Source: Chiloscyllium plagiosum
Lineage: Eukaryota
NCBI RefSeq assembly: GCF_004010195.1
Contig: NC_057719.1
Span: forward strand, 11,036,507 to 11,100,506
Reading direction: 5' to 3'
Length of the DNA: 64,000 nt
The notes below the pieces were generated by a model. That model was given only the letters and a program-made list of their open reading frames with translations. It did no database searches and had not been told where the DNA came from. Both the position numbers and the translations under genes were made by a program. Shown here in pieces: positions 2,785 to 62,929 of this stretch (position 1 is the first letter of the stretch; every line of letters starts with the position of its first letter).

Positions 2785-3340
2785 GAGTGCAGGTTCATAG
2801 CTCCTTGAAAGTGGAGTCGTAGGTAGATAGGATAGTGAAGACGACGTTTGGTATGTTTTCCTTTATTGGACAGAGTATTGAGTACAGGAGTTGGGGGGTC
2901 ATGTTGTGGCTGTACAGGACATTGGTTAGGCCACTGTTGGAATATTGCATGCAATTCTGGTCTCCTTCCTATCGGAAAGATATTGTGAAACTTGAAAGGG
3001 TTCAGAAAAGATTTACAAGGATGTTGACAGGGTTGGAGGATTTGAGCTGTAGGGAGAGGTTTAATAGGCTGGGGCTGTTTTCCCTGGAGCTTTGGAGGCT
3101 AAGGGGTGACCTTATAGAGGTTTATAAAATCATGAGGGGCATGGCCAGGGTAAATAGACAAAGTCTTTTCCATGGGGTTGGGGAGTCCAGAGCTAGAGGG
3201 CATAGGTTTAGGATGAGAGGGGAAAAATATAAAAGAGACCTAAGGGGCAACTTTTTCACTCAGAGGGTGGTACATGTATGGAATGAGCTGCCAGAGGAAG
3301 TGATGGAGGCTAGTACAATTGCAATATTTAAAAGGCATTA
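2785..3340 (+). mobile_element. CR1 (HER1-like) LINE ORF2 C-terminal fragment
   Basis: ORF 2835..3341 has LYRTLVRPLLEYCMQFWSP...[13 protein letters not shown]...FFTQRVVHVWNELP. Confidence 0.9.
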
Positions 3341-3439
3341 ACAAGGGATTATCAAGCAATTTAATTCATTCAGTGCAGTGTTCATTTCCCATCGGACTTG
3401 GTCCTTGAGAGTTGCTGGTGACCTGCCTTCTTAAACTAC

Positions 3440-5030
3440 AAGTAGGAACAGTTTCTTGCTATCTACTCAACCCAATCTCTTCCTGATTTTGTAAACCTCT
3501 ATCAGATCTCCTTTGAGCTTTCTTCTCTCCAAGAACTATCCCAACTTTTTTTTGATTAGGTTCCCTACAGTGTGGAAACAGACCCTTCGGCCCAACAAGT
3601 CCACACTGACCCTCCAAAGAGTAACCCATTTCCCTACCCTATATTTACTCCTGACTAAGGCACCTAACACTACGGGTAATTTAGCATGGCAAATTCACCT
3701 GGCCTGCACATCTTTGGACTGTGGGAGGAAACCGGAGCACCCAGAGGAAACCCACGCAAACATGGGGAGAATGTGCAAACTCCACACAAGACAGTCACCC
3801 AAGGCGGGAATCGAACCCAGGTCCCTGGTGCTGTGAGGCGCCATGCCACCCAAACTTCTTCAATGTATCCTCATAACTAAAATTTCTCATCCCTGGAACA
3901 ATTCTTGCAAATCCCTTCTGCACTGTCTCCAATGCATTCAATTCATTCTTATATGGCATTGCATCCTTGCTTTCTCTTCATGGCTTATTTTCCGAACTAT
4001 CTTTGTCACCTAGGCAAATCTGGTGACCACACGTTCATTCCCTTCTTCCAAGTCATTTACACAAACTGTAAACAGTTCAGGTCCCTGCACTTACCCCTGT
4101 GGCATATTACTCGCTAACATCTTTCCAAATTGTAAAACAACCCACTAATGCCTGTTCTCTGTTTTCTGTGGGCCAATCAATCTTCTCTCCATATCAGGAT
4201 ACTTCCTCCTACCCTATTAGCAATTATTTTCCATGATAATGTACAGTATGACACTTTACCAAACACCTTCTGGAAGTCTAAGTACAGTATATCTACCAGT
4301 TCCCCTTCATCCACGACGTATATCATCTCCTCAAAGAACTCCAACAGATTTGTCAAACGTAATTTCCTTTTCACAAAACCATGTTGACTTTGCCTGATAC
4401 CTTGAACTTATTAAAGTGCCCTACAATAAATTTCTGACAGTTTTCATATGACAGCTAGAGAGCTAAATGGCCCACATTCTGCCTTCCTCTCTTTTTGAAT
4501 AAACAAGTTACCTTCTTTACCTTCCAATCTAATGGGAATGTCTCCAAATCGAGGAAGTTTTGAAACATTAAAACCAATGCGTCAACTATCTCACTAGGCA
4601 CTTGTTAGTCACAGCTTCAATGACTTACTCAGTACTACTTCCTGGTGATTGCATTTGTCCCTTGTTCCTCCCTCCTTTCTATGTCCTGATTTATCACTGC
4701 TTCTGTCACGTTACTTGTATCCCCTACAGTAAATACGGATGCAAATTATCTGCTCAATTCTTCTGCCATTTCCTTATGATCCATTATTATTTCCCAATCT
4801 CAGTTTCTATAGATCCCCCAACGGCTCACTATGTTCACTCTTTTCTTTATCAAATATTTACAGAAACTCTATCTTTTTACCTTTCTCTCACACTCCATTT
4901 TTTCATAATAATTATTTTGGTCATTCTTTGTTTGTTTCATATCCTGTGCAATCTTCTGACCTGATACCTTGTCTTTGCACAATTATTTGCTCTTTCTTTA
5001 AATTTGATGCTAAATTTATAATTTCTAGTC
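3440..5030 (-). mobile_element. Degenerate CR1 LINE, interrupted by an HE1 SINE
   Basis: ORF 4177..4374 contains the CR1 RT motif LTNLLEFFEE...VDILYLDFQKVF. Confidence 0.75.
3554..3851 (-). mobile_element. HE1-type V-SINE
   Basis: Reverse complement of tRNA-like head (B box GGTTCGATTCC), V-domain GCGTGGGTTTCCTCTGGGTGCTCCGGTTTCCTCCCACAGTCCAAAG and CR1-like tail. Confidence 0.9.
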
Positions 5031-8820: not shown

Positions 8821-9426
8821 AAGATGACCTGAGATAGTTTATCAAGGTTGGTTGATCTATCCCTTTGCGAGTTTTTGTACACATGGCAATATAACTATTT
8901 GCTGTTTTTTGAAATATCCACTTAAATGTCTGCTACCACTTTTCCACTGACATGTCCTTTAACCCAATTTGCCAATTCACTTTAGCCAGCTCTGCTCTCA
9001 TACTGTCATAATTGTCATTATTAAATTAGATGACCCCACTATTTCATTGAGAATCCTGTCTACATCGCCAGTTATGTGGCCCCAGTCAGGTGAAGACTGT
9101 CCCATCAGATGCAAATCCTACTTTCCCCAGTCCGGATGCTCGCTCTTCACAAACCTGAACCCACATCTTCCACACCAGTTTTTCAACCATGCATACATCT
9201 CTCTACTTTGATTGGCACTATGGTTCAGGTAATAATGCAGAGATCTGATTTGCCAGTTCTGCTTCTTAACTGGGCACCTCGCTCAACATACTGCTAACAC
9301 AGAACCGCCTTCTTTGTCCTGCCTGTGTTGTTGGCAGATACCTGGACCACGACGATGAGCTTTTCTTGGTAGTGGACAATGAAGTCATGTGCCCAGACCA
9401 CATTCTGTGCCTTTGCCACCCTCAGT

Positions 9427-9584
9427 GGGCGGCACGGTGGCACAGTGGTTAGCACTGCTGCCTCTCAGCGCCAGAGACCCGGGTTCAATTCCCGCCTCAG
9501 GCGACTGACTGTGTGGAGTTTGCACATTCTCCCCGTGTCTGCGTGGGTTTCCTCCGGGTGCTCCGGTTTCCTCCCACAGTCCAA
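9427..9584 (+). mobile_element. HE1-type V-SINE, young copy running into the gap
   Basis: GGGCGGCACGGTGGCACAGTGGTTAGCACT (A box), GGTTCAATTCC (B box), then the V-domain. Confidence 0.92.
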
Positions 9585-10084
9585 NNNNNNNNNNNNNNNN
9601 NNNNNNNNNNNNNNNNNNNNNNNNNNNNNNNNNNNNNNNNNNNNNNNNNNNNNNNNNNNNNNNNNNNNNNNNNNNNNNNNNNNNNNNNNNNNNNNNNNNN
9701 NNNNNNNNNNNNNNNNNNNNNNNNNNNNNNNNNNNNNNNNNNNNNNNNNNNNNNNNNNNNNNNNNNNNNNNNNNNNNNNNNNNNNNNNNNNNNNNNNNNN
9801 NNNNNNNNNNNNNNNNNNNNNNNNNNNNNNNNNNNNNNNNNNNNNNNNNNNNNNNNNNNNNNNNNNNNNNNNNNNNNNNNNNNNNNNNNNNNNNNNNNNN
9901 NNNNNNNNNNNNNNNNNNNNNNNNNNNNNNNNNNNNNNNNNNNNNNNNNNNNNNNNNNNNNNNNNNNNNNNNNNNNNNNNNNNNNNNNNNNNNNNNNNNN
10001 NNNNNNNNNNNNNNNNNNNNNNNNNNNNNNNNNNNNNNNNNNNNNNNNNNNNNNNNNNNNNNNNNNNNNNNNNNNNNNNNNNNN
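9585..10084. other. Assembly gap (N run)
   Basis: Run of N. Confidence 1.
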
Positions 10085-10569
10085 AGTTTTCTTCTGTCCC
10101 AATCGATCTTTTCATAGCAATAAAGAAAATAGGAACAGCATAAGGCCACTCAGCTTGTCTAGACTTCTCTGTCATTCAAATAAATCATGGCTGATCATCT
10201 GTCACAATGCCACTTTCCCGCATTATCTCCATGTACCTTGATGTCATTAGTCTCCAAAAAGCTATTGATTTTCTTGAACTTGCTTAATGATTGAGTTTCT
10301 ACAGTTCACTGCAGTGGAGTTCATGAAAATTCACCAACTTTTGAGTGAAGAAATTCATCCTCATCTCAGTCATAAATACCTTACCCCATTAACCTGAGAT
10401 TATGTCCCTGGTTCTGGACTCAACAACCAGGGGAATCATCTTAGCAATATCCACCTGAGCCCTGTAATAATCTTATAAGTTTCAAGGAGCCAATGCTTAT
10501 TTCTCAAGATTCTCAGGAATCTTTTTTTCAATCTCTCCTCATAAAACAATTCTGCCACACCAGGAATTA

Positions 10570-10994
10570 GTCTAGATTATAGTGGTGCTGGAAAAGCACA
10601 ACAGGTCAGGCAGCATCTGAGGAGCAGGAAAATCGACATATCGGGTAAAAGCCCTTCCTGATGAACGGCCTTTGCCTAAAACGTCGATTTTCCTGCTCCT
10701 CGGATGCTGCCTGACCTGCTGTGCTTTTCCAGCACCACTTTAATCTAAAAATCACACAATATCAGGTTATAGTCCAACAGGTTTAATTGGAAACATTAGC
10801 TTTTGGAGCGCTGGTCCTTCACCTGATGAAGGAGCGGTGCTCCAAAAGCTAGTGCTTCCAATTAAACCTGTTGGACCATACTCTGGTGTTGTGTTATTTT
10901 TAACTTTGTACATTCCCAGTCCAACACCAGCATCTCCAAATCACTCTAAACTAGATTCTGGTCTCCAGCATCTGCAGTCCTCACTTTCTCCGCT
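10570..10994. mobile_element. Nested PLE termini: a family-1 inverted pair with a family-2 inverted pair (~10748-10943) inside it
   Basis: Two palindromic units, each centred on a CTGATGA motif (10658, 10823). Flanking direct repeat CCAGGAATTA at 10560 and 10995. Confidence 0.8.
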
Positions 10995-12579
10995 CCAGGA
11001 ATTAATCTCTGTCGTGCACTTTCAAGGGAAACTATATCCCTCCTTTGATATAGGGACCAAAACAGAACACAATACTCCAGGTGAGATCTGCATACAAACT
11101 GCAGGAAGACATCATCACTTCTGCATGCAAACATCTCTGCAATAAAGGCCAAATGAGCATTTGTCTTCCTAACCGTTTGCTGCTCTTGCATGCTATCTTT
11201 AAATAATGTATGAAGAAAGTATACTACCTCTTCTCTCACTTCACTTTCTTTCAAGTCCACAAATCCCTTAGTCACCAGGTATTTCTGGAAGATTTCCTGT
11301 ATCTTCTTCCATGCAGATGCATGCAAAATACGGCTTCTCCACCATTTCCCTGGTTTTCCACTGTAAATTCACCAGGCCCCAGCTATAAGAGGCTGACATT
11401 TGTCCTAGCTCATCTTTTCATTTTCACATACCTAAGGAGGCTTTTCTTTGCTGTCCAACTTTATGTTCCCAGCTAGTTTTCATGCAGTTGAATAAAACAA
11501 AGAACTATGGATGTTGAAGATCAAACAAAACAGGAATTGTTGGTAAAATCCAACAGGTCTGGCAACATCTCTGGGGAGAAAACAGAATTGTTTTCATTCA
11601 GATTATCTTTTTACAGTTTTAATCAAGTTCTTGGTCCTTCTTGGCCAGATTCTAAATTGCTCCCAATCTTCAGGCTGACTATTTTTTCTGGCATCCTGAT
11701 AAGCTACTTTCTTTGATCAAATGCAATACATACATAAAAAGCAAGAAAGTAGTCAGGGAAAGAGTCGGCCCACTCGAGGACAAAGGAGGGAATCTATTGT
11801 GGAGCCAGAAGAGGTAGGTGGGGTCCTCAACAAATCCTTTGTGTCGGTATTCACCACAGAGAAGGAATTAGTGCAGGATAATCTCAGGGAAGGGAGTTAC
11901 AAATTTCTAAGTCAAGTTGCTATTAAAAGGGAAGGGTGTTGTGCGTCTTAAAAAGTATTAAGGTCTGTCCCCGGTTCTGATGGGATCTATCCCAGGATAC
12001 TGAGGGAGACAAACACAATAGCAGCATTCAAGAAGCACCTGGATGAATACATGAACAGGAAGGAAATAGAGCGACACAGATCCTGTAAGTGAAGTCAGTT
12101 TTACTATGGAAGGGCAAAATATGTCAGCGCAGCCTTTTGGAGGGCGGGGAGGTTGAAGAGACTGTTCTTGTGCTGTATTGTTCATTGTTCTTTGATCTAG
12201 CCACAGTTGACTTGTCTTTCTTGTTGGGTATTTGTGTCCTAGAGGAAGGCTGTTTACTTCTTTTAAGTTCATTCACGGGATGAGGGCATCACTGGTTAGG
12301 CATTTATTGCTCATCCCTAATTGCCCAGAGGGCAGTTAAGAGTCAATCACATTGCTTTGGGTCTGGAGTCACGTAGTCCAAACCAAGTAAGGATGGCAGT
12401 TTCCTTCCCCAAAGGACTTTAGTGAACCAGATGGTATTTTTAACAAATACTAGCCATTCCTGCAGACTGCCAAATCTTTTAATGTATTTTCCACTCCACT
12501 ATAATCAATTTGCCCCTCATACCTTCATAATTTCTTTATTCAGATATAAAACCTTACTTTCAGAATTGACTTAGAACTA

Positions 12580-12890
12580 TGGAATCATTATAGTGTGGAA
12601 GCAGGCCTTTCAGCCCATCCAGTCCATACCATCCCTGTGAAGAGCATTCCACTCACACACCCCTCCCCTCCCACCTTCCCTGTAACCCTACATTTTCCAT
12701 AGACTGTACATCCCCTGAACCCAATAGGCAATTTAGCATGGCCAATCCACCTAACCTGCACATCTTTGGACTGTAGGAGGAAACCAGAGCACATTGGAGC
12801 ACCCAGAGGAAACCCAAGTGTGCAAACTCCACACAGAGAGTCACCTGAGGCTGGAATTGAACTCAGGTCCGGGAGTTGTGAGGCAGCCAC
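12580..12890 (-). mobile_element. HE1-type V-SINE
   Basis: Reverse complement of head, V-domain and tail as in the other copies. Confidence 0.85.
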
Positions 12891-13739
12891 TGAAACACAG
12901 TGGCAAATTTAATTCAAAGTTCTATAATATTATGGTCACTATAGCTCCAAAGGTCTTTTACAGCAATGCTATTAATTAGCATTTTCTCAGTATTTAACAC
13001 CAAATCCATAACTGCTCAATTCCCAGTTGGCTCCTCAAAGCATCTTTAGAAATCCATCTCGTACATACTCAGAATTCACCCTCCATGTCAGTTATGTTAG
13101 TTTAATTAATGCAGTCTAAGTGTAAAATGTAATTGCCAATTATTACTATTCTACCCACATTTTATGCATCTCTAATTTCCTGATTTAGACCATTTCAACA
13201 TTACCATATCTAATAACCAACCCACCAGTGTAGCTGCCCGGTTTTTATTCTTAGCTATATCCAAACTGATTCTACAGCTTGATCCTTCAATCTAATATCC
13301 TCTATTACTAATGCTATAATATCATCCCTTAATAAGAGTGTTGCCCCACCTGCTTGCCCTTTTCTCTTATCCTTCCTAAATGATGAATATTTTTGGATAT
13401 TCATTTCCTAATCTTGGTCACCCTGCAGCCACGTCTCCGTAATGGCAATTAAATCATATCCATTTATCTCAATTTGTGCATTCAATCATTTTTGAAAATA
13501 CTGTTGCAAATTCAGATAGAGTGCTTTAATTCTCCTTTTGATCCTATTTGATGCTTGCTTTTGCTTTGTCTGTCTTTGATTATGCCAAAAATGGCGACTT
13601 AATGATAATGTCACTGGATTAGTAAACTAGAAGCTCAACCTTCAGACATAGTTTCAAATCCCACCATGCCAGCTGGGGAATATAAATGCTGGCATTTCAT
13701 GGCCAGTTATGATCAGTGAGAGTGGCCATGAAACCATCA

Positions 13740-13767
13740 CTGAAGAAGGGCATGTGCCCGAAACGTC
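13740..13767 (+). ncRNA. Minimal hammerhead ribozyme motif
   Basis: CUGAAGA-A-GGGC-AUGU-GCCC-GAAA-CGUC. Core intact; native 5' arm of helix I replaced by flank. Confidence 0.6.
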
Positions 13768-13862
13768 GAATCTTCTGTTCCCTAGATGCTGCCTGACCTG
13801 CTGTGCTGTTCCAGCAATAAAGTTTCAGCTTTGATCTCCAGCGTCTGCAGACCTCACTTTCT
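13743..13862 (+). mobile_element. Short PLE 3'-terminal insertion with 17-bp flanking duplication
   Basis: CCATGAAACCATCACTG at 13726-13742 and 13863-13879; ends in CTGCAGACCTCACTTTCT. Confidence 0.85.
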
Positions 13863-16800
13863 CCATGAAACCATCACTGCCATAAAAACCCATCTGGTTC
13901 AGCAACCTGCCATTCTTACCTGGTCTGGCTTGCATGTGGTTCTCGTGACCCTCAGCAATGTGGTTGACTCTTAAGTGCCCTCTGAAATGGCCTAGTATAC
14001 CACTTAGTTCAGGGCTTGAGAAATAACTTTCCACTGACACCCACACCCCATTTAGTAATACATTTTTAAATTCCTTACAGGTTTTGCCAGCCTTGTCTAC
14101 AAGTCAGTCTATAAGTGTTTTCCGGAACCTTCCGGCACTTATTAGCAGTTAATTCCATTCTACCCACAATCAAATGGCTGAATCAGTTCTTTGCTGATTC
14201 CCCTGACAGTGCAATAAAAAAATACATAAAAGATAGGGCAGTGTCACAATACAGTGCCTTTACTTCCGTCTGATACAAGCAAGGTAAGAATGGTGATATG
14301 ACTTAAATAGAGTGAGTGGAGGGGGATGTGCAATTGCTGAGTGCTTCTCATGCTTTTATTGCATTTATTCTTATTGGTGGCAAATGATGTGAGCTTGGAA
14401 GGTACTGTCAAAGGAGCCTTGGTGAGTTGCTGCTGTGCATTTTGTAGATGATACACAGTGGAGGGAGTGCATATGTAAAGGTGCTGGTCAAGTGGGCTGT
14501 TTTGTCTTGAATTGTATTAAGCTTCCAAAGCATTATAGGAATTGTTGTTGTCGCCATAGTCTTACCAGACCATAGGGGCTGCTCACCCATTAGAGAGAGA
14601 AGCGACTGGCGTTGATTTAACCTGAGGGCCACTAGACCCCAGGTGAGGGAAGAGGTTCAGAAATAGAATCCTTCATGGTAACCTCAAACCAGTGATGGGA
14701 ATTGAACCCATGCTGTTGGTATCACACTGCTCTGTAAACCAACAATCCAGCCAACTGAGCTAAACCGATTCCCATGGGAATACTCATTTAGTCAAATAGG
14801 GAGCATGTTATCACACTCTTGACTTGTGCATTGTAGATGGTGGACAGGCTTTGGCAGGTCAGGAGGTGAATCACATGTTGTATAAATCCTAGCTTCAGAT
14901 GTCCTCTTGCAGCCACAACAGTTGCCTGGTTAGTCTAATTCAGTTTCTGGTATTGTCCCATACCTCACTACATCCAAGTAATGGTAGCAGCAACTACTCC
15001 ATAGTATATGAGCTATAGAAGGAAGCAAAACTAAGATAAAGAAACTGTATTTATACAACACTTTTCATGGTCTTGAGATGTCCCAAAGCATATTGCAGCC
15101 AATTATGTATTTGGAACTAAAGTCTTTAACGTGGGAAACAGACACAGCAACCACCTGCAAACCTCAATGCTTGTGAAGCATTGCAAAATATTTATCACTC
15201 AAATGGAGCTCTTAAGCGCAATCGGTCCATGCTGAGGTTTATATACATATGAACTTCTTCATCTATCCCCATCCACACACCTTTATATTCTTAACTCTAT
15301 CCTGAGTTGACCTAGGTTCTACCTAAATGCATCAATGTATGGGAGCTTTAACACTTGCTTGAGGGAACAGGCATATTTTATTCAAAAGACTGGTGCAAGG
15401 ACGGTCCATCACTCCCTATTATCACGTTACAGCATCCGCTAATATTTATACATGCTTAGGTCTCTGGAACGGACCAAAGGGTCTGTTTGCATGCTGTAAG
15501 ACTCTAAGTGAGGAGGAGTAAATGGAGGATCAGAAGTCTCTCTGTCCAAAATTCTCCTTAGTCTAAATAATTCCTGATGAAAAGAAATCCCCTCTTCTTC
15601 ACAGATACATAAGTCTTCACTGCACTCAACTTCAATAGATTCGAAGTGCTATAAAACTAATGACAAAAATTCTTGTTTTTGTTTTATTTCTTTGGTGAAT
15701 AATTGATCCTTCTCCTTCAGTCAGTCTCCAAAAACTGCAGAATTACCATTCCCAAAACAATATATCATTGAAGGATATAACAGAGTCTAGAATGGACCTG
15801 TCAAATTTTGCACATACTGACAGCAATGTCGATATAGTAGTGATTTGTACCAGTTACATGTTATCCCTTCAGGTAGTCGTGCTGATATCTTCTATAGCTA
15901 CTAGTTTAATATCATCCTATGTAGTGACTATAATTGTTGAATGGGCTATCCGTGCCATATAAAAAGAATCCTACTCATTTTAGATTTCAGTGTTGAACAC
16001 ATTACAAAGCCACTCTTTGTTTTAGACAAAGGTTAACCTAATCTTTTTGTCCTCACGGAGTATAGGAAATAGCTGGCCAGCTTTTCTAATACACTGCATT
16101 CTATCCCATAGGAGTATAAAGGACTATGTACATCTGCAAAGTGAAGTCTATGTTCCATTTCTTATTCATAAGGGGCAGGTAAGAAAGATGGGATGTTGAT
16201 TCCTACTAAATGGAACTCATAAATCACTTTAAGCAAGGATTTAGCATTAAGACCATGCAATACTCATGGCCAATACCAAATAAGTTACAGGTAACAGTGT
16301 ATAATAATTCATTGACTCTGCAGTTTATAGTTACTGGCAACAAAATGGCTGTTCTCAGGACACAAACTTTAATTGTAAGAGGCAATCAAAGAAATGGAAG
16401 ATGCTATCATATTCTCTGGAATAGCTGAGGATCGACAGTGAATGGATTACTATGAAGCGCAGTGTAGCAGATCCCGCCAACACCGGAGAGGTGAGAGGTC
16501 AATTAATCAATTTTGGGCAATATTGATTGAAGGAGGGTTCTCAGTCAGGACTCTGGGTAAACCCAATGCTATGTGTCATGTATTCTTCATCTAAATCACT
16601 GCAATGGGCAGTGGCCAAAGCAGCACTCCATCAGCATTGAAAAATTAACAAAAATCATGCGTTTGAAAAGGAAGCAATCGTGACTTTCAGAAAGTCATAG
16701 CTTTCAAAATTCCTCTGAAAACTAGTGCTTCTGTACAGAGTATAATGTAAGGCAGGACATGGAAATAAATTGCAATTGAAGAAGCTTTCAGAATGACTGT

Positions 16801-58684: not shown

Positions 58685-58810
58685 TCTGAAGAAGGGCTTA
58701 TGCCCGAAACGTCGATTCTCCTGTTCCCTGGATGCTGCCTGACCTGCTGCGCTTTTCCAGCAACACATTTCCAGCTCTGATCTCCAGCATCTGCAGACCT
58801 CACTTTCTCC
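58685..58810 (+). mobile_element. Short PLE 3'-terminal insertion into CR1 with 18-bp flanking duplication
   Basis: TCAGAACTTCAAGAAAGT at 58667-58684 and 58811-58828. Confidence 0.9.
58686..58713 (+). ncRNA. Minimal hammerhead ribozyme motif
   Basis: CUGAAGA-A-GGGC-UUAU-GCCC-GAAA-CGUC; core intact. Confidence 0.65.
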
Positions 58811-61049
58811 TCAGAACTTCAAGAAAGTCAGTCAAGGAAGTGAGTGCAGTGGTCATCACTAAAGAGAAGGTGCTGGGGAAGCTGAAAGGTCTGAAGGTGG
58901 ATAAATAACCTGGACCAGATGAACAATGCCCCAGGGTCTGAAAGAGATTGCTGAGGAGATTGTAGAGGCATTTATGGTGATCTTTTGGAATCGCTGGAGT
59001 CAGAGTGGGTCCCAAAGGATTGGAAAATGGTTAACGTAATACCCCTCTTCAAGATGGGAGGGAGGTAAAAGGCAGGAAAACCACAGGCCAATTAGCCTGA
59101 CCTCAGTCGATGCAAGGTTTTAGAGTCCATTTTAAGGGTGAGATTGCTAAGTACTTGGAAATGCATGGTGAAATGGGGCTAAGTCAGCATGGCTTTGTCA
59201 AGATGAGGTCATGCTTGACAAATCTGTTGGAATTCTTTGAGAAGCCAATGGGCGAGTTTGACAAAGGAGAGCCTATGGTGTCAGGGGCAAGATGCTGGCA
59301 TGGAGAGAGGATTGGCTGACTGGCAGACTACAGAGAATAAGGATAAAGGAGTCTTCAGAAGAACTTGGCAGGCTAGAAAAATGGACGAAGAAGTGACAGG
59401 TGGAATACAATGTGGGCAAGTGTGAGGTTCCTACCTTGGTGGGAAGAATAGAGATGTAAAATATTTTCCAAATGGGGAAAGGCTTCAGAAATCTGAAGCG
59501 CAAAGGGACTTGGGAGGTTAACATAAAGTTTCAGTTGGTAGCTAGGAAGAGAAATGCAATGTTAGCATTCACTTCAAGAGGGCCAGAATACAAGAGCAGA
59601 GATTGACTGCTGAGACTGTATAAAGCTCTGATCTGACCATATTTGGAATATTACGACCCTATATATAAGGATGGATGTACTGGCATTGCAGAGGGTCCAG
59701 AGGAGGTTTATAAGAGTGATCCCTGTAATGAAGGGCCTGTCATATGAAGAGCAATTGAAGACTCTGGGTCTGTCCTTGATGCGAATTTAGAAGGATGATG
59801 GGAGATCTGATTGAAAGTTACAGGATGCTGAGAGGCCTGGATAGAGTGGATATGGAGATGTTGTGTCCAGTAACAGGACAGACTAGGATCTGAGGGTACA
59901 GGATCTGAAGGAATGACTCTTTAGAACTGAGTTAAGTAGGTATTTCTTCAGCCAGAGTCTGGTTAATCTGTTAATATCATTGCTGCAGAAGGCTGTGAAA
60001 GTCAAGTTATTGAGTGTATTTAAGACAGAAATAGGTAAGTTTTTGATTAGTAAGAGAATCAAGGGTTACAGGGAGAAGTTGGAGAATGGGATTGAGAAAC
60101 ACAGCAACAATGAATGAATAACTGTTGTAACAGACTCAAGAGGCCAAATGGCTTAATTCTCCTATATCTTATGGTGAGCTCAGATGGCTAGATAGCTGGT
60201 TTGCAATGCAGAGTGATGGGTTCAGTTCCCTCACTGACTGAGGACCTTCTCAACCTCACCCTTCGCCTGAGGCATAGTGACCCTCAGGTTGAGCCAGCAG
60301 TCCTGTGGTCTATGGCATGTTTAGCACACTAACAGTGCAAATGGGAGTTCCAGGATATTGACCAAGTGAGAGTGAAGGAAAGACGATGTGGTTCGAAGTC
60401 AGGATGGTGTGTGGTTTGGACTGTAACTTGCAGGTGGTCATGCACCTGCTGCCCTAGGCCTTTTAACGGTCACAGTGTCAGATGGTGTCATTGAAGAGAG
60501 TCCTGGCGAGTTGGAACAGTGCATCATGTCGATCGTACACATTGCCATCACTATGCATCAGTGTTGAAGGGAGTAAATGTTGAAGGTTGCAGGCAGGATG
60601 TTTGGTCTGAAAGGTATCAAGCTTCATGGGTGTTCTTGGAGCTGCACTCATCCAGCCAAGTGGACAGAATTCCATCATATCCTGACCTGTGCTTATTAAT
60701 GGTGGACAGAAAGTGAACTAATTGTTACAGAATTTTGATCTTCTGACCTGGTCTTGCAGCCACAGTATTTATATAGCTGGTCCAGTTCAGTTTCAAGTCA
60801 ATGGTCACCCCCAGATCTTGATAGTGGAAGATTTGGTGATGATAATGCTTCTGAAAGTCAAGGGCGATGTTTAGTTTCTCTGGTGTTGGAGATAATCATT
60901 GACTGGCACTTACAATACCTGAATGGTACTTGCTACTTATTGGCCAAAACTGGATATTGTCCAGGACTTGCTGCATCTGGATACACATTCCTTCAGTACC
61001 TATGGAGTCACACCTGGTGCTGAACATTGTGTAAACATTGACTCACATC

Positions 61050-62003
61050 CTGGATCAGTACACTCTATGTGTAATTAAAAGGTGACTTGGTGATCAGATA
61101 CTGGCCTCTGTGCTGCCGAGGGAAAAGCATCCTCCTGAAGAAGTTTACTTGCAACAGTCATCTTTGAGTTGGGGTAAGCATTCCTGGCATCATTCCATAA
61201 TTTGGGAAACTTGACTTGTTTGATGCTGCCGTCGAAGACTGGGCCCAAATGCAACAAGATCTGATCTGTAGTGACTGCAACAAGATCAGCCATGTGGACT
61301 TCACAGAATGAGTTCACTACTTGGGCCAGATTAACAGCCCCAATCAGGGAGCCCTGGCTGACAGATAAGTACAGGAATGCAGGTCTGAAGGCCTCCTCGT
61401 GGGTTTGTTCCTGGGCCTGGCCAAACTGGCCAGCAACAGGTCCAGGCAGCGGGCCGTGGAGGGGGTCGTTAGGGCCGACTGCCTGCCCCTCTTCCGCGGT
61501 TACGTTAGAGCCTGGGTGTCCTTGGAGAAGGAGCACGCGGTGTCGACCAACGCGCTGGAGTTGTTCAGGGAGAGGTGGGCGCCGCAGGGAGTGGAGTGCA
61601 TTATTTCTCCCTCCAACTCTATTTTGATTTAGTCCCTACCCTCCCCTTCACTGTTTTGATCACACAGCACTGCCCTTTGATGTGAAGGGCAGTGTTTGTC
61701 ACTGGCCACCCAGGTGTTTTCCTATCTTCCTGGTGGTGGAATTTGAATAAAGATTTGTGCACTTTGTGTCTTTCACTGTTTAAATAAAAAGAAAAAAATA
61801 TATAAACAGGAGTCCAGCACTGCCCTTTGATGTGAAGGGCAGTGCTTGACATTGGCCACCCAAAAAAGAAAAAAAAAGTACAGGAATGCCAGACATCCTG
61901 TTCACTCTGACAGCTGGCTCTGATGGAGCTGGAGCATGGACTTTCCATGCGTAATTAAAGGATGACTTGGTGACGGGATACTAGCCTCTGTGGAGTTATT
62001 TCA
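61050..62003 (+). mobile_element. Internally deleted Gypsy element: partial 5' LTR (61050-61112), gag start remnant (~61191-61256), 3' LTR 61267-62003 interrupted by Tx1
   Basis: GTAATTAAA.G.TGACTTGGTGA...GATACT.GCCTCTGTG repeated at ~61071 and ~61951; P*FGKLDLFDAAVEDWAQ gag-like N-terminus; LTR TGTAG...TTTCA. Confidence 0.75.
61381..61875 (+). mobile_element. 5'-truncated Tx1-clade non-LTR retrotransposon with 14-bp TSD
   Basis: Open frame RSEGLLVGLFLGLAKLASNRSR...LFRGYVRAWVSLEKE...FRERW to TAG at 61632 (Tx1 ORF2 C-terminus), AATAAA, A-rich tail. TSD AAGTACAGGAATGC at 61367-61380 and 61876-61889. Confidence 0.85.
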
Positions 62004-62841
62004 TGGACAAAATCCAGACATGGGCTGACAAATTGTTAGTAACATTCATGTCACACAAGTGCCAGGCAATCACCATTTCCAACTCAAGGGAAACTAACCA
62101 CCACCCTTTGATTTTCATTGATATCTGTATCATTGAATCCCCCTCTATCAACATCCTCGGGGTTACTGGAGTGTGACAGAACTCTCCCCTCTTGCCTAGA
62201 TGGGTGCAGCTCCAACAAGAAGTTTGACACCATTCAGAACAAAGTAGCTCATTTGATTGGGACTACAACCACCACCTACGCTCAGTAGCAATAGCATGTA
62301 GTATCTATAAGATATACTGCAGAAATTCATGAAGGCTCCGAAGACATCACCTTCCAAATCTTTCTCGAAGGACAAGGGCAGCAGATACATGGAAACACCA
62401 GTACATACACATACCCCTCTAAGCAACACCATCTTGACTTGGAAATATATCGCCATTCCTTCAGTGTTGCTGGGCAAAATTCCTGGAACTCCCTTTCCAA
62501 TGGCATTGTGGGTCAAGAAGGCATTTCACCGCCACGTTCTGAAGGGCAGCTAGGATGGAAAATGAATGCTAGCCCAGCCAGCAACGCTCATGGCCCACCA
62601 GTGAATAAAAAAGAATAAATCAGCATTGTTCCAGAGTTGATTGAGGCGGTGCTCCCTGGACATTTTATTTAAGTGCAGGGCTCTTGTGGCACATTGGCAT
62701 TATCTGTCCTTCTGGGCCAGAAGGCCCAGGTTCAATCCCACGTGCTCCAGAGGTATGTCATAACACTTTCCTTAATGATTAATATAAGAAAGAAGAGCTG
62801 GGTTGTTCGGGGGAGAAGGGGAGGGAGGAAGAACACGAAGT

Positions 62842-62927
62842 TGAAACTTTATTGCTGGAACAGCACAGCAGGTCAGGCAGCATCCAGGGAACAGGAGATT
62901 CGACGTTTCGGGCACAGGCCCTTCTTC
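62842..62927 (-). mobile_element. Short PLE terminal insertion with 16-bp flanking duplication
   Basis: AGGAAGAACACGAAGT at 62826-62841 and 62928-62943. Confidence 0.85.
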
Positions 62928-62929
62928 AG
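62902..62929 (-). ncRNA. Minimal hammerhead ribozyme motif, on the ADCK1 sense strand
   Basis: Minus strand UUC-CUGAAGA-A-GGGC-CUGU-GCCC-GAAA-CGUC-GAA: intact core, 3-bp helix I, ACGU palindromic helix III. Confidence 0.7.

Follow-up and report, generated by a model that had tools for sequence, protein, structure and literature searches.

The window, by which we mean the whole 64-kb stretch of DNA analyzed here, carries an LTR at 61267-62003 that measures 228 bp without its insert. The 509-bp insert (61381-61889) interrupts this LTR at its TATA-like motif and is bounded by a 14-bp exact direct repeat, with the left copy at 61367-61380 and the right copy at 61876-61889 (plus strand, as are all of the features located below). 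In order, the insert contains the end of an ORF2, a stop, a 3' UTR, an A-rich tail, a 16-mer, a 48-nt repeat of the hairpin region, and an A tail. An earlier note on this DNA had described a perfect 14-bp target-site duplication within an LTR and had placed the tail, the 16-mer, the hairpin repeat, and the second tail; the repeat is exact, and all of those coordinates stand. A match of this kind within 10 bases on either side of both ends is expected by chance at about 2e-6, and the duplication is one of only two exact 14-mer pairs outside low-complexity sequence that lie 400 to 600 apart in the window. With its 5' truncation, A tail, and target-site duplication, the insert has the hallmarks of target-primed reverse transcription, and the Tx1 piece within it was likely placed by that process with the element's own endonuclease.

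The host LTR

Public reads were mapped to 61030-62010 with an 80% cut-off, using raw runs X19 and X20 (organism A, 1.93 Gb each) and contigs X5 (organism B) and X9 (organism C). The left half of the LTR (61267-61380), delimited by reads and by pol-end proteins, starts with TG and contains a CCAAT at 61340-61344 and the TATA-like motif, which is mutated here; the insertion site at this motif lies 25 nt downstream of the CCAAT at 61340. The right half (61890-62003) has a poly(A)-signal position at 61954-61959 and a CA end. This end is sharp at 62003, where the flanks of family reads become heterogeneous (agreement, 0.34 to 0.36; 1,095 and 1,079 reads). Upstream lie the 3' part of a second host LTR (61050-61112, 80% identical over 64 nt to 61929-61992) and, at 61113-61266, the leader and a short gag-like remnant of an internally deleted host LTR element, recognized from family-read joints and translation. 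Family reads also link the LTR end at 62003 to 61118, 61132, 61133, and 61161, in the way that the upstream LTR runs into the leader. Among 26 proteins carrying the pol-end segment (one unrelated 4,550-amino-acid match was left out), 4 continue into a plus-strand match to the LTR left half, and in one case this match starts at the first base of that half. Thus, the host repeat is an LTR, with TG...CA ends, a direct repeat, a sharp boundary, and a position downstream of a pol end, as the earlier note had proposed.

The host element is tentatively labelled as Gypsy, a label for which there are weak pol leads. Two pol-end proteins contain a YLDD-type reverse transcriptase piece (P0037, RVT_1, E value of 0.003), and a likeness to an integrase C terminus (0.93, in 14% of members) is a lead only; pol itself is absent from the window. 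The translation of 61183-61260 presumably resembles the start of a Gypsy gag, and a Pfam search of the 20-amino-acid gag-like piece gave no match. No complete second copy of the LTR was found in the 64-kb window.

Several other features of this region were observed. Inverted arms bearing the CCAAT flank a short loop at 61316-61349, and both orientations occur among family reads, with opposite-strand joints at 61321/61344 and 61325/61340 (140 and 123 reads in X19; 113 and 103 in X20). The LTR also exists in a second form, represented by 522 and 449 reads, in which extra sequence follows 61350, behind the CCAAT and ahead of the TATA-like motif. On either side of the host element, at 60340-60966 and 62001-62496, lie copies of one repeat in opposite orientation; their arms are 71 to 78% complementary, and we take the repeat to be an old CR1/L2-type LINE. 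Copies of a 91-nt repeat at 58686-58776 and 62839-62929 lie in opposite orientation and are 89% complementary.

The Tx1 piece

The insert begins with the C-terminal 83 codons of an ORF2 and its stop (61381-61632), truncated at the 5' end and identified by translation and protein comparison. Its 3' UTR (61633-61779) contains a hairpin at about 61662-61700, defined by folding, and an AATAAA at 61746; in reads, the family continues past 61779 by about 60 bases or more. The first A-rich tail (61780-61798) starts 29 nt past the AATAAA and represents a minority end in the family. Behind the 16-mer (61799-61814, with a 14-nt core at 61800-61813) comes a second Tx1 piece of 48 nt (61815-61862), which consists of hairpin region cut at both ends, is identical to 61665-61712 at 45 of 48 positions, and, judged by reads, has the other common family letter at 61845. 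The second A tail (61863-61876) would be the priming end of the insertion. The hairpin is stable (z = -4.4 for 61625-61880; 0 of 200 shuffles). Both tails (61786-61798 and 61863-61876) read A5-6 G A7-8, an unexplained agreement that could reflect a templated tail or copying of one from the other.

Identity between the 83-amino-acid piece (P0001) and the end of P0003 is 64%, and P0003 is in turn 41% identical to the ORF2 of Xenopus Tx1L over 99% of its own length (E value of 1.5e-138). P0001 also matches Tx1L directly, at residues 1233 to 1292 of 1308 (38% over 63 amino acids; E value of 2e-8), and no alignment was obtained between P0001 and a fish L1-type LORF2. These identities and the direct match show that the insert derives from the 3' end of a Tx1-clade element. 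As judged from the predicted protein, the insert is a member of the Tx1 clade by its C terminus only, in agreement with the earlier assignment. The endonuclease and reverse transcriptase are missing from this copy through the 5' truncation; the relative P0003 has the end of a reverse transcriptase and a zf-RVT, both below curated cut-offs, and a Pfam search of P0001 gave no match. The closest named relatives are gene models of the whale shark (all five of the source-labelled models that were looked up). No second Tx1 copy was found in the 64-kb window, and searches of the loci in viral and prokaryote collections with P0003 as query found no relative. A 21-base hairpin pattern drew seven metagenome loci and one viral locus, which were dropped; seven of these eight matched the pattern alone, the Tx1 C terminus was encoded at none of the eight, and at one (L007) a 70-nt, 77% match lay within apparent bacterial coding DNA.

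Fewer reads continue 5' of 61379 than 3' of 61779 (1,162 versus 3,300 and 1,120 versus 3,145, or about 35%), which suggests that most copies in the family are apparently very short 3' pieces.

The middle target copy

The 16-mer resembles the local target, and it could in principle have been part of the Tx1 3' UTR. The reads rule this out. Past 61779, 3,300 reads in X19 and 3,145 in X20 follow one other sequence with an agreement of 0.88, and read depth drops from about 6,000 to about 80 across the first tail and the middle piece. Therefore, the middle 14-mer lies outside the Tx1 3' UTR. Chance likeness was also rejected as an explanation. The 14-base core is matched exactly at one place in the window, and six other matches with up to three mismatches are at the level of chance.

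The middle piece differs from the local left target at 61368, 61369, 61370, and 61377 (4 of 12 columns), and where family reads bear on these differences, they side with the middle piece. At 61370, the only one of the four columns that falls among the 40 listed of 799 rows, its letter is present in 543 of 617 and 517 of 599 reads, the local letter being in the minority. In the right copy, at 61879, its letter is present in 197 of 217 and 154 of 164 reads. Furthermore, one X9 contig follows the LTR left half up to 61367, matches the rest of the middle 14-mer at every position, and then enters Tx1. The earlier note had held the middle copy to be foreign and had named, as the finding that would count against this, a 16-mer intrinsic to the Tx1 3' UTR and absent from the LTR; we found the reverse, a piece that is unlike both outer copies, is not UTR, and follows the LTR family at 61370 and 61879. 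One further protein, P0024, has the residues PWLTDINRR, which fit the middle piece and not the local target; it failed the shuffle test and is a lead only.

Both outer target copies carry the identical four differences from the middle copy, which implies that this LTR had drifted before the insertion and that the middle copy is foreign. The middle copy equals the local duplication in length (14 nt), and its register lies 2 nt upstream. These sequences bear on the idea that two insertions struck the window locus in succession, so that the middle piece is a local duplication that later mutated. Successive insertion is the normal origin of tandems spaced by a target, according to PMC4494074 and bioRxiv 10.1101/158386. 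However, with the outer copies identical, the middle one departing at 4 of 12 columns where the family is followed, and the 2-nt offset, it would need four reversions or four parallel changes here. Successive insertion at the window locus thus fails on the sequences of the three target copies, and we regard it as highly improbable.

Repeated insertion at the LTR site

We examined junctions in the X9 contigs (the best 12 of 658 rows) and a table of joints (the best 15 of 717), neither of which is a random sample. Three of the best 12 X9 rows run from the LTR left half at 61365-61367 into Tx1 at 61605, 61696, and 61718, and one runs from a tail and target (61809) into Tx1 at 61613, an array junction resembling that of the window; the rest are seven empty sites and one junction of LTR to LTR. 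Ten of these 12 rows start in the LTR left half, so that 3 of 10 enter Tx1. In the other direction, 1 of the best 15 joints leads from the Tx1 tail at 61795 to the LTR right half at 61956. The X9 contigs and the window (61381) together give distinct Tx1 start points at 61605, 61613, 61696, 61718, and 61381, and these differing 5' truncations indicate that one position was hit several times independently. The LTR-to-Tx1 joints among the best rows include none from the window's own species. With 9,000 to 16,000 Tx1 ends, 2,800 to 4,600 LTRs, and an assumed genome of 3 to 5 Gb, fewer than 0.1 LTR per genome would be expected to have received Tx1 within 10 bp of the site by random insertion. From the LTR-to-Tx1 and array junctions in contigs of a related species, we conclude that the site has been struck repeatedly, and the proposal in the earlier note of at least two strikes on the same LTR site is borne out by the further junctions in organism C.

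Read depth at 61813 was 37 and 54, where the window locus by itself would give about 0.5; we read this excess, indirectly, as reads across tail-plus-target junctions. In all four runs, there are also target-to-hairpin junctions one or three letters shorter at 61813 (two reads in X19, one read in X20, two contigs in X5, and three contigs in X9, one of them at a depth of 365), pointing either to recurrent truncation at the base of the hairpin behind the target or to a multicopy composite.

Weaker support comes from similar joins in gene models, where predicted introns conceal the real distances. In the whale shark model P0005, a Tx1 C terminus is fused to residues that match the translated right half of the LTR (0 of 2,000 shuffles), this being the one match to the LTR right half among nine source-labelled Tx1 models. 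P0038, 1 of 25 independently found pol-end models, joins the host pol end to the Tx1 C terminus, and P0018 carries a tandem pair of C-terminal Tx1 pieces. The shuffle test also passed four minus-strand matches that are likely false. A join of pol end to Tx1 in P0007 was not counted as independent because P0007 had served as a search query.

Junctions would not be independent if a few Tx1-bearing LTRs had been amplified by the LTR element itself. The depths of the listed junction contigs (58 to 76) do exceed the typical depth of X9 contigs (25 to 38), as such hitchhiking would predict, but the listed junctions have four different Tx1 start points and the window has a fifth, and we consider this explanation very unlikely. 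A comparison of paired LTRs is impossible within the window since the upstream LTR remnant (61050-61112) stops short of the site.

How exclusive the targeting is was judged from depth. Depth over the Tx1 3' end (6,037 and 5,659) is 3.2 to 3.7 times that over the LTR (1,517 to 1,795), and empty sites account for 62 and 53 reads in the six listed empty-site joint rows with raw reads. The ratio and the common empty sites suggest that many Tx1 copies may lie elsewhere or in arrays. Additionally, a strict sequence reading fits poorly with the local target, 4 of whose 12 columns are not of the family type. These three observations are what would be expected if the LTR site were one hot spot of an abundant, loosely selective Tx1 family with most of its copies elsewhere, a possibility that we take seriously while doubting it. 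The share of LTR-left rows that enter Tx1 (3 of 10, among the best 12 of 658) and the presence of an array junction argue against it. Moreover, LTR depth is undercounted owing to the 80% cut-off and to promoter variants such as that past 61350 (522 and 449 loose-end reads), and this undercount, with several Tx1 copies per LTR in arrays, makes the ratio compatible with specificity. What we claim is a probable strong preference of the family for the TATA-like site of the LTR and not exclusive use of it. In PMC4494074, a family counts as target specific when more than 20% of its flanks belong to one kind of sequence.

Origin of the composite insert

Starting from the observed duplication, C-terminal clade assignment, family-type middle target, and junctions in a related species, we think it probable that a truncated Tx1 was inserted at the TATA-like motif of the LTR and that its inner target was imported by a read-through transcript of a tandem array, itself located at the corresponding site of another copy of this LTR. 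In target-primed reverse transcription, a nick is made in the target, an A tail primes synthesis there, and a second nick follows. Here the endonuclease, which determines target choice according to PMC4494074, would nick the TATA-like motif, the A tail would prime, and a second nick 14 nt farther on would yield the duplication. Every insertion of this kind would restore the target on both sides and so could build stacked arrays of Tx1, target, and Tx1. Because the left target copy retains the promoter motifs, with the CCAAT and TATA kept upstream, the LTR promoter would be expected to transcribe even truncated copies and to read through the insert and array. The resulting RNA would consist of a Tx1 end, its tail, the target, 48 nt of the next copy, and a tail, and it is this RNA that may have been inserted at the window locus. 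The second end lies 74 nt past an AATAAA at 61783 and 56 nt past the TATAAA of the target, with a 39-nt hairpin in between; we conjecture that this hairpin brings the poly(A) signal effectively closer to the cleavage site.

The middle copy might instead have arrived from another array by ectopic gene conversion or unequal exchange between Tx1 copies, or by template switching of the reverse transcriptase, in which case repeated targeting would still hold. Near-identical Tx1 3' ends number in the thousands and supply homology to the left and to the right of the middle piece, and the A5-6 G A7-8 shared by the two tails is not accounted for by untemplated tailing. Nevertheless, the target begins behind the first tail in the same register as at an authentic 3' junction, the second piece is shortened and tailed like the end of an RNA, and a single target-site duplication encloses the whole unit. 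We therefore judge these routes unlikely. On the sequence at hand, the middle copy was most likely acquired from a donor array by 3' transduction. Thus, of the 3' transduction put forward in the earlier note, the foreign LTR target was confirmed, and the transduction itself is the best, inferred mechanism, no donor having been found.

A broader reading is that the Tx1 family lives off LTR promoters, being drawn to them, transcribed from them, and exporting its own landing pad by read-through, so that new family-type targets reach other loci and start arrays outside intact LTRs. Attraction to the promoter (e.g., by bound transcription factors) is suggested by the fact that a target with mismatches at 4 of 12 columns was struck, and export of the landing pad would account for Tx1 ends outnumbering LTRs. 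We put this forward as a speculation that is probably wrong as a whole. If it were true, the family would be a genome-wide silencer of one LTR family in several shark species. Should the preference prove strong, the promoters of one LTR family would be disabled or borrowed by these Tx1 elements, whose endonuclease would then be a candidate for a new site-selective nickase.

Comparison with known systems

In L1 3' transduction, a tail, a foreign 3' flank, and a second tail lie within one target-site duplication. The insert in the window shares this layout; it differs in that the flank carried along consists of the target of the element itself and a portion of a neighboring copy. The composite is a direct sequence record suggesting that target-spaced arrays can likely be remobilized as a unit.

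Tx1L of Xenopus laevis (YTX2_XENLA, P0012) has an ORF2 C terminus homologous to that of the window Tx1 and, as described in PMC4494074, also inserts into another transposon, Tx1D. Its target is a piggyBac-type DNA transposon, whereas that of the window Tx1 is an LTR promoter. The tandems of SINEU-3 and Tx1-Mar in Mariner-N4_AMi likewise sandwich a target-site duplication within another element; in that paper, they are explained by successive insertion, and the flanking target element is proposed to drive transcription. In contrast, the sandwiched target in the window is unlike both of its flanks, which points to import from another locus.

The closest precedents are Tx1-8_Crp and Tx1-4_AMi, crocodilian Tx1 families that prefer LTR retrotransposons (Kojima 2015, PMC4494074). 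The earlier note had suggested that an LTR-targeting Tx1 was undescribed; these two published families overturn that suggestion. In the excerpted text of that paper, the LTR family and the site are not stated for them. Compared by description only, the present case differs in its exact site at a TATA-like motif and in its shark-like genome, and in the literature, to which the search was confined (Repbase and Dfam lay outside it), no shark or TATA-site case of such targeting by Tx1 was found. An exact, promoter-centered target thereby joins the known set of Tx1 targets. The principle that Tx1 elements target LTR retrotransposons is already in print, and the shark-like case is a clean further example of it.
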